Assembly (NCBI GenBank): GCA_902520495.1
Contig: CABYNW010000003.1
Coordinates: 7,645 to 71,644 of the forward strand
Length of the DNA: 64,000 nt
DNA from: an uncultured SAR86 cluster bacterium
Lineage (GTDB): Bacteria; Pseudomonadota; Gammaproteobacteria; Magnimaribacterales; D2472
Reading direction: 5' to 3'
The translations under genes and the position numbers were made by a program. This document shows positions 24,423-26,318 of this stretch, one piece after another. Under the pieces are notes generated by a model, which did no database searches, was not told where the DNA came from, and worked only from the letters and a program-made list of their open reading frames with translations. Numbering within the stretch: position 1 is the first letter of the stretch; every line of letters starts with the position of its first letter.

Positions 24423-24812
24423 TTAGAGATCACCTTTTTTTCTAAGGTCAGCTCTTATTTTTGTTGCACTTATAGAGGTAATTTCTTCATCAAATATCTC
24501 TTCTTCAAAAACATAACCCACACCTCTGCCATAAGAAATGTTTGTAATATTTGGTACTAGCATTATTTCGTAATCTAACCCTCTTTCAAAACCGTCTAAT
24601 TTTAGATTGGTTTCAATATCGATACAAACATCCTCCCAAGAAAATGGATTATCATCCTGTCCTTCACCACCGGACGAGCCTTCTACATCTCTAACTTGAA
24701 TTATTACCTGACCAGTTTTCACAACACATCTTTTAAATAGCTCCTGATGTCCTTTATGCCAAGGCTGCCATCTTCCTAGCATCTGAACAGTAGGCTTCTT
24801 CCAATCAAACAT
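24423..24812 (-). CDS. Small HIGH-superfamily nucleotidyltransferase (cytidylyltransferase-like)
   Basis: GRWQPWHKGH (HxGH motif), NPFS, ISATKIR (KMSKS-equivalent SxTxIR). Confidence 0.8.
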   Translation of the reverse strand: MFDWKKPTVQMLGRWQPWHKGHQELFKRCVVKTGQVIIQVRDVEGSSGGEGQDDNPFSWEDVCIDIETNLKLDGFERGLDYEIMLVPNITNISYGRGVGYVFEEEIFDEEITSISATKIRADLRKKGDL

Positions 24813-25215
24813 TTTGTAAAATCTCTTTTGCTAATATTTTGTGATTTTCGTCATTCATTTCTGTAATTCTATAGTCCGCATCTATAGGCTCCTCAAACAT
24901 TTTATTAGTATCTTCATACCTTCCTGATTTAATTGTATTCATCCATACGGTAATATCAGGATCAAAGTTTTTCTTAGTCTCTTTTGTAGGGCAAACAAAA
25001 TCGCAAATAACAATTCTTCCATGTTTTTTTTCAAAATCAGCAAGGTTTTTCATTCTTAAACTTTGCCTAATTCTTCCCTGTGGTGAAAAATCCCAGTCGT
25101 TAGCCATTTCTCTTACAATATCTGCGTTATACCACGCAGCATTAAGAAGGGGCTGCATTCTTTTTGCTAGATACGTCTTACCACTTCCAGGAAGACCCAT
25201 TATTAATATTTTCAT
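24805..25215 (-). CDS. Small P-loop kinase, adenylyl-sulfate kinase-like
   Basis: GLPGSGKT Walker A; NADIVRE..DWDFSPQGRIRQ resembles CysC DGDNVR..DLGFS..DR; DFVCP; FEEP. Only 136 aa. Confidence 0.75.
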   Translation of the reverse strand: MKILIMGLPGSGKTYLAKRMQPLLNAAWYNADIVREMANDWDFSPQGRIRQSLRMKNLADFEKKHGRIVICDFVCPTKETKKNFDPDITVWMNTIKSGRYEDTNKMFEEPIDADYRITEMNDENHKILAKEILQNV

Positions 25216-26318
25216 TATCTTGTTTTCTTAATACTAAAAATTTCGTTTTTAAATTGAATTTCACCAACATTATCAATAGTTTTTTTAACCTTATTATGAA
25301 GTCTGGTATTTTTTTCAAGAGCTTGGATATCTCTATCTGGGATTTGTCCTACATAAACAATGTTGGCCCATTTGGCATCAGTATTATGTCCGAATAATTC
25401 TGTAACAGTTTGATCAGGTGCCTTCTTAAAATTAAAAAAATAACTCAATGGCTTCGCATATGTATATTTATTGTTATCGCCTACTGGATTATTTTTTAAG
25501 TAATCAATGATATCTTTTGCAGTATTGGGAAAAGCTTCCTTATCTTTAAATGCCATTTTAAGAATTTTCTGAATAGATTCACCTCCAGATGAATGCGTAA
25601 TAAGAAGTTTTCCAGATTTATTTAGTAATCGCATTAAAGGACCTATTACATTTTTAACCTTAACACTAACTGAAGACGCTGCTCTGTATGCTTGTGATGC
25701 AATAATAAGGTCATAATTGTTGTTTTTATAATCATTTTTTACAAACTGCTCAAAATGTTTTTCATGATCTCCTCTATAAACCCTAATTATGCAGGGGTTT
25801 GAATAGGATGTTCTACTTTTGCTATCTATCTCTATGCCCCAATTTTTCTTAATAAAATTTCCAAGCGCATTACCAGTAATTTGTGAATGAAAGTCAAATG
25901 AATTATCGCTCTTGAGAATTAAATTAAACTCTTTAACTTTTTTATTTTTTATTTTTTTTGAGGTCTCGATTACTCCTAATTCTGCAAATTTAACATTTGT
26001 CATGGTTACCATTAGATTAGGGTGCTCAACAAACCTGTCAGGCATTTTTTCTAAAGTATTTTTTAAGTCTTCGTAGCTTATTTCTTTTCCAGTTATAAGA
26101 AGCGATGTATATGGATGATATCGATGAAAACTTTTAATAACATTCGATTTTATTGTTCCATCTCCTGTTCCTGCATCAAGTATTCTTAGATAAGATTTAT
26201 TTTGAGAAAGACCAGCAATATAAGGATAAAGCTTTTGTGAAATAGCTTTCTTCTCGCTAGTATTTTGAATGAAAGATAGATATTTTAACCTGTCATCAAA
26301 GAATCTTTTTTTCCCCAT
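25215..26318 (-). CDS. Putative class I SAM-dependent methyltransferase, uncharacterised
   Basis: LRILDAGTGDG motif I, acidic residue at end of beta-2 (ITGKE), YDLIIASQAY motif; stop overlaps kinase start (TAATG). Confidence 0.65.
   Translation of the reverse strand: MGKKRFFDDRLKYLSFIQNTSEKKAISQKLYPYIAGLSQNKSYLRILDAGTGDGTIKSNVIKSFHRYHPYTSLLITGKEISYEDLKNTLEKMPDRFVEHPNLMVTMTNVKFAELGVIETSKKIKNKKVKEFNLILKSDNSFDFHSQITGNALGNFIKKNWGIEIDSKSRTSYSNPCIIRVYRGDHEKHFEQFVKNDYKNNNYDLIIASQAYRAASSVSVKVKNVIGPLMRLLNKSGKLLITHSSGGESIQKILKMAFKDKEAFPNTAKDIIDYLKNNPVGDNNKYTYAKPLSYFFNFKKAPDQTVTELFGHNTDAKWANIVYVGQIPDRDIQALEKNTRLHNKVKKTIDNVGEIQFKNEIFSIKKTR

Follow-up and report, generated by a model that had tools for sequence, protein, structure and literature searches.

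The locus studied here raises the question of what reaction three tightly overlapping genes serve, and whether all three belong to one module. They lie on the minus strand of a 64,000-nucleotide stretch of DNA from an uncultured SAR86 cluster bacterium, analysed as a whole and referred to below as the window. A methyltransferase-like open reading frame of 367 aa (26318-25215) is followed by an APS-kinase-like P-loop kinase of 136 aa (25215-24805) and by a NadM-like HIGH (HxGH) nucleotidyltransferase of 129 aa (24812-24423), termed NT. The methyltransferase stop and the kinase start share one base, at 25215, within a TAATG (25213..25217), and the kinase stop overlaps the NT start by eight bases (24805..24812). 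The reading frames, their lengths, both overlaps and the motifs had been described in a sequence-only reading and were all confirmed. The kinase and NT differ from genus relatives mostly at third codon positions (186/86/654 by position for the kinase, in the 12 gap-free alignments among 19 loci, and 251/157/926 for NT, in 17 of 19), and intact orthologues of each occur in 32 of 36 genus relatives.

The source genome is 1.09 Mb with ~32% GC and is 85% complete. Parts of all three genes appear in contigs from four RNA-library runs, and one of these contigs, of 495 bases, crosses the kinase-NT junction, although contigs cannot show an operon; none in the four runs bridged the methyltransferase-kinase junction by 31 bases. 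A promoter and terminator scan gave 8 sites compared with 11.3 in shuffled sequence, which is nothing above chance, and Rfam produced no match in the 64-kb window or in the PnuC loci considered below. As a separate observation, GC skew changes sign at about 28-30 kb of the window, where mostly positive values give way to mostly negative ones, a possible replication origin or terminus.

The kinase carries the P-loop GLPGSGKT and matches the Pfam family APS_kinase (PF01583) with 30.2 bits, over the cut-off of 21.1; with the NCBIfam CysC model TIGR00455 it scores 21.7 bits, under the cut-off of 138.7. Its best natural PDB matches are the APS kinases 2yvu and 2gks. In an alignment of 22 sequences (the kinase, 20 relatives and one canonical CysC) the residues G7, G10, G12, K13, D32, R35, F43, R48, F73 and P76 are invariant, and we take these to be the P-loop and core APS-site residues. 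Those from D32 onwards are common to canonical CysC, with which the kinase has the P-loop, D-x-x-R, F-S, R and F-x-x-P in common at an identity of about 25%. The two differ in the lid. The CysC segment RDPKGLY...FTG is lacking, with ~13 residues missing, and in place of R-D-P-K-G-L-Y the kinase has a short T-I-K-x-G-R; its Y/F-E-D-T-N-K-M-F-E-x-P stretch nevertheless keeps the spacing of CysC F-T-G-I-D-S-A-Y-E-K-P. The lid region of CysC is described in PMC10322725. By its sequence, the kinase is a lid-shortened relative of CysC.

NT has HKGH at residues 19-22 and SATKIR at 115-120. Its family, which is coherent (714 representatives at E up to 1e-10), is marked by GRWQPxHxGH, R41, NP, PNI, YGRxVGY and SATxIR; R41, PNI and YGRxVGY are its own, and HxGH and SxTxxR, the ATP/pyrophosphate motifs of HIGH nucleotidyltransferases, are nearly invariant. 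No profile family matched NT over cut-off. The best sequence match is NadM, below the curated cut-offs (PRK01153, 28 of 127 bits; TIGR01527, 26.1 of 181.2), and the predicted fold ranks likewise, although the model is weak, with a mean pLDDT of 68 and values under 50 across residues 90-113 in the substrate-pocket region. In this model NadM comes first (Z 9.2, rmsd 3.4, 115 residues aligned), followed by PPAT (Z 8.6), Sat 1v47 (Z 7.0, rmsd 4.1, 119 aligned) and TagD-like folds (Z 6.2); the top rows from VIA-align are all HIGH enzymes. With NadM of M. jannaschii (1f9a) and Francisella NadM-Nudix (2qjt), NT shares GRxQPxHxGH, NPF and SxTxxR; however, the match is confined to the first 75-80 residues, NT has its own YGRxVGY, and there is no NAD gene context. 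Plain orthology of the two proteins to an enzyme such as NadM or canonical CysC, which the sequence-only reading had named as fatal to its proposal, does not apply: both fall far below the curated cut-offs.

The likeness of NT to Sat consists in the HIGH-superfamily nucleotidyltransferase fold, as seen in the predicted model. Sat motifs are QxRN...HxxH and GRD. NT keeps HxGH but has GRWQ in place of QxRN, and its YGRxVGY only loosely recalls the Sat GRDHAG. There was no match to the Sat family PF01747 at E up to 1, and comparison of the NT profile with one Sat domain gave a probability of 0.9%. Whereas Sat has three domains (PMC10322725), the 129 residues of NT amount to the catalytic core only. 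Databases label NT a 'cytidylyltransferase', the ESM Atlas returned only the proteins' own unnamed clusters, and searches of the literature, mostly open-access main texts, found no description of NT.

The kinase and NT occur in the same 40 of 61 related genomes and lie no more than 200 bp apart in 39 of these. Among 80 viral NT loci the kinase is adjacent in 76, within 850 bp in three and cut off in one; among 80 cellular NT loci it is present in 72, four of them with the methyltransferase, and NT stands alone in eight. The unit is therefore one of two genes, not three. The two proteins also correspond to the halves of a single phage family, phrog_10255, the kinase to the N-terminal half (E 2.9e-29, profile positions 2-106) and NT to the C-terminal half (E 8.6e-20, positions 124-228). 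Members of this family such as Xylella phage Sano gp35 and Stenotrophomonas phage DLP_6 gp227 have the same two domains in the same order; they are fused, viral and annotated only as kinase or hypothetical protein, whereas the genes here are split and cellular. The single-gene form was found in 12 phage records (Xylella, Xanthomonas, Clavibacter and Stenotrophomonas phages), and a P-loop precedes HxGH in 110 of the best 120 of 3,077 longer NT homologues.

Fusion in the opposite order was also observed. In protein P0382, NT precedes a canonical CysC (TIGR00455, 233.6 bits against the cut-off of 138.7), the same domain order as in Sat-CysC and CysN-CysC. P0382 clusters with a total of seven members, and the fusion family comprises 177 matches of ~310 aa; because the NT motif, the CysC P-loop and the CysC lid occur together in 100 of the best 120 of these 177, we regard NT-CysC as a family and not a chimera. 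The whole fusion was present at 19 of 80 metagenome loci retrieved with it as the query. These fusions (L208-L226) lie on low-GC marine contigs and carry no annotation beyond adenylyl-sulfate kinase or CysN/CysC; their neighbours include TPR-sulfotransferases, peptide-transporter-like genes and very large repeat proteins.

A link to phages, which the sequence-only reading had suggested for marine phages, is borne out by the fused and split forms found in phages, and its suggestion to look for fused homologues yielded both orders. Viral cysC auxiliary genes have been reported (10.1101/2021.01.05.425418, PMC10914622), and the word 'nucleotidyltransferase' does not occur in the main texts of these two papers. 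In an NT tree, six SAR11/HIMB59-type rows fall among viral rows with a support of 99 on the enclosing branch; this was a quick tree on 129 columns, with 35 of 67 branches open and two named phage rows dropped at the domain filter. Its topology fits phage-host exchange and gives no direction. Some phages (L116, L117, L120) have a small DUF2061-like membrane gene between kinase and NT, and in P0263 a sequence similar to it is fused to NT. In Ralstonia phage RSL1 (L003:8989-15226) a mini APS kinase that has no NT domain is clustered with glycosyltransferases, a nucleotidyltransferase and a Sulfotransfer_2 gene next to thymidylate synthase; this cluster may serve sulfated glycan modification.

The pair recurs in a sulfur context. 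Of the 80 cellular NT loci, 21 contain aprA and 26 contain cysQ, and genes of sulfonate degradation such as xsc often accompany them. Although many of the genomes are closely related, the loci show three gene orders. At one locus (L148) a lone NT lies immediately upstream of aprMBA, and a canonical cysC follows some 4.4 kb downstream. In sulfur oxidisers, sat occupies the place ahead of aprMBA. The genome of this locus (G062) itself holds Sat, so Sat is not lacking where this arrangement occurs. Of the 20 Pelagibacteraceae genomes, 13 have both NT and AprA and none has one without the other; a further genome, without either, has Sat. The match of NT and AprA is not independent evidence, the two genes lying 360 bp apart in incomplete, related genomes. 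Sulfotransferases form the second context. In all six family f2 genomes with the pair, the gene immediately upstream of a kinase copy encodes a Sulfotransfer_3 protein (in one of them, G055, this copy has a stop and an intact pair lies elsewhere), and a TPR-sulfotransferase is adjacent at 4 of the 19 NT-CysC fusion loci, where 13 neighbours were scanned.

The same genomes often show a gap that the pair could fill. Profile searches of the source assembly, 85% complete, found no canonical cysC, cysD, sat, cysH-like or aprAB gene and no PAPS-reductase-domain match, which extends to the whole genome the earlier remark that no other cys genes lie nearby; the assembly does hold three Sulfotransfer_3 genes and a CysQ-like gene just under cut-off (223.9 of 228.8 bits). 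Across the 61 related genomes sulfotransferases were found in 46 and the pair in 40, against one with Sat and one with CysD over cut-off, and many small-genome marine bacteria thus have sulfotransferases without a known PAPS source. By family, f1 and f2 have sulfotransferases as well as the pair, f3 has neither (0/8 each), and in f4 both are rare; the single CysD genome (G045) lacks the pair. A Fisher test over the 24 genomes outside the genus (6/1/4/13) gave p 0.009, a value that is overstated since kin are not independent and on which our reading does not rest. There are exceptions: G052 and G058 (140 and 70 contigs) have sulfotransferases with no pair, Sat or CysD found, in G060 the pair is present and no Sulfotransfer_3 was found, and at the 80 viral loci sulfotransferase-like neighbours are rare (two proteins, under cut-off). 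Five Bacteroidota loci (L131, L141-L143, L150) have NT but no kinase, and none showed an identifiable sulfur gene next to NT; there NT is flanked by a PLP decarboxylase-like gene and further unrelated genes, and in one Bacteroidota genome (G065) NadD is present and no Sat or CysD was found.

Two fusion orders, the aprMBA, cysQ and sulfotransferase neighbours and this gap filling tie NT to APS. We conclude that the kinase and NT probably form a minimal PAPS synthase, in which the NadM-like NT would act as a non-orthologous ATP sulfurylase. One branch of the sequence-only reading, a minimal PAPS-synthase-like pair, thereby gains support from the fusions and the recurring sulfur context, with the catalysis inferred. 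NT would convert ATP and sulfate to APS and pyrophosphate, and the kinase would phosphorylate APS to PAPS. In the source genome PAPS would then supply the three Sulfotransfer_3 proteins, and the CysQ-like phosphatase would clear PAP. In SAR11-type genomes with the pair beside aprMBA, NT would probably run in reverse, from APS and pyrophosphate to ATP and sulfate, and so complete the sulfite disposal begun by AprBA. The exceptions listed above speak against this reading. By sequence and predicted fold, moreover, NT is nearer to NadM than to Sat, and the Sat motifs are absent. NT also coexists with Sat in two genomes, G037 and G062. The Sat domain (PF01747) of G037 belongs to a 717-aa protein (L302:4451-6601) whose N-terminal part appears pyruvate-kinase-like by eye.

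This coexistence would suit an NT with a separate role at APS. Since the context links NT to APS and not to one reaction, NT might instead use phosphate as acceptor, in the manner of an APS:phosphate adenylyltransferase, hydrolyse APS or act on a related oxyanion, with the kinase still making PAPS. We consider this unlikely: the ATP/pyrophosphate motifs are nearly invariant in NT, and genomes with sulfotransferases but without Sat or CysD need a maker of APS.

The resemblance to NadM suggests another role, a split NadR-like NAD salvage in which the kinase would turn nicotinamide riboside into NMN and NT would adenylylate NMN in place of NadD. A NadD over cut-off is indeed missing from 36 of 37 genus genomes, the single match having stops, and searches of three genus genomes detected a PnuC-family transporter but no NadE, NadC or PncB/NadV. 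However, the pair does not follow the loss of NadD: family f2 has both (NadD 7/8, pair 6/8) and f4 has almost neither (0/8 and 1/8). NadD loss is tracked instead by a protein with CinA-like and HIGH parts (f1 26/36, f4 8/8, f2 0/8, f3 0/8). Furthermore, the PnuC gene has a TonB receptor on one side and an APH-family kinase on the other, presumably a thiamine-uptake layout, the kinase of the pair has APS-kinase residues, and NT fuses to a true CysC. NAD salvage is therefore very unlikely to be the function of the pair. The CinA-like/HIGH protein, of 368 aa, is encoded at G000:C2:105873-106976 (L304:3871-4977, minus strand), with an orthologue at L306:4134-5243; it has no PDB sequence match and, to judge from its occurrence only in the two families that lack NadD, is a likely NadD replacement. 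Across five whole genomes (G000, G014, G018, G039, G042) NadD, NadE, NadC and PncB/NadV were not found, and NAD kinase was found in all four of these that were tested. Such lineages appear to depend on an outside source of NMN or NAD.

A role in cell-surface polymers, in which the pair would activate a sugar phosphate or polyol phosphate and NT would be the cytidylyltransferase of its database name, is scarcely credible. The pair does lie in islands that also encode NeuB, UDP-glucose dehydrogenase and GDP-mannose dehydratase, in one locus set a KDO-type synthase is near it in 13 loci and a cytidylyltransferase in 17, and in phages it lies near glycan genes. But such islands also hold canonical CysD/CysNC (G045), CysQ-like and PAPS-reductase-domain genes, so that the location of the pair can be explained by PAPS supply. 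A polymer role would leave the aprMBA linkage and the CysC fusion unexplained, and TagD-like folds rank lower in the model comparison.

The methyltransferase has motif I, DAGTGDG, at residues 48-54, and D48-A-G-x-G-D and E79, the acidic residue after strand 2, are invariant across distant homologues. No Pfam family matched over cut-off. The predicted structure (pLDDT 78.7) has a class I SAM fold, with Z up to 17.2; the SABATH carboxyl/N-methyltransferases 2eg5 and 1m6e and histamine N-methyltransferase 1jqd align with Z 16-17 over ~255-266 residues at only 11-16% identity. On this model, the upstream gene encodes a class I SAM-dependent methyltransferase-fold protein. Full-length homologues in larger gammaproteobacterial genomes (L296-L300) have varied neighbours that give no hint of a substrate; R5, F6, R10, Y13, E22, K23, P93-D-R, S208-Q, R212 and W317 are invariant in these homologues.

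Within the 61 related genomes the methyltransferase is present in 33, all of one genus, and it adjoins the kinase in 28 of the 33 that hold both, with two more broken by contig ends. It was found in none of the 24 genomes outside the genus, seven of which have the pair, and at none of the 80 viral NT loci. In three genus genomes (G011, G016, G035) it keeps its locus without the pair, the next gene following directly, and a pair of 67-70% identity lies elsewhere, in a polysaccharide island. Among 400 class genomes, 6 carry homologues of 27-32% identity, and the stretches retrieved around these contain no pair. Because it is unlinked in the three genus genomes and absent from the viral loci, the methyltransferase is likely a local, genus-specific neighbour of the pair and not part of the module. 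Unlinking in relatives, by which the sequence-only reading had proposed to judge its operon, thus holds for the methyltransferase and not for the kinase and NT. The other branch of that reading, a single methylate/phosphorylate/nucleotidylate pathway, has the tight overlaps and the adjacency within the genus in its favour, as well as other SAM-methyltransferase genes beside the pair or an NT-CysC fusion at a few loci (L029, L219, L221). This pathway, like a variant in which the methyltransferase would act on a sulfated or sulfur-bearing product of the pair, can be given hardly any credence, and the three-gene pathway was rejected on gene order. The pair came to lie behind the methyltransferase in most of one genus, and no shared pathway is indicated.

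The fate of APS in SAR11 has been open, because aprAB is under strong purifying selection (PMC12636525) and sat is reported absent: PMC5069961 lists cysC, cysQ and aprA for strain HTCC1062, and no sat or cysD. On balance we favour the view that NT represents a third class of ATP sulfurylase beside Sat and CysDN, derived from a NadM-like scaffold and carried by many marine phages, which would be the missing Sat of SAR11 and of related ocean bacteria with streamlined genomes, would draw ATP from sulfite disposal and would allow PAPS to be made with ~265 residues. If true, a 129-residue ATP sulfurylase would close both this gap and that of the PAPS source, and would change the annotation of ocean sulfur pathways and of viral cysC genes; the pair would also be a very small module for PAPS regeneration. 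The methyltransferase itself adds little beyond one uncharacterised family.

The closest known systems are the PAPS synthases, among them human PAPSS1 (1x6v), Aquifex Sat-CysC (2gks) and the Thiobacillus enzyme (3cr8). In these, too, a HIGH-fold nucleotidyltransferase is combined with an APS kinase, and both orders exist; the pair is likewise linked to sulfotransferases, CysQ and AprBA. In contrast to the PAPS synthases, the two genes here are split, NT is NadM-like and without Sat motifs, and the kinase, at 136 aa, has a cut-down lid.
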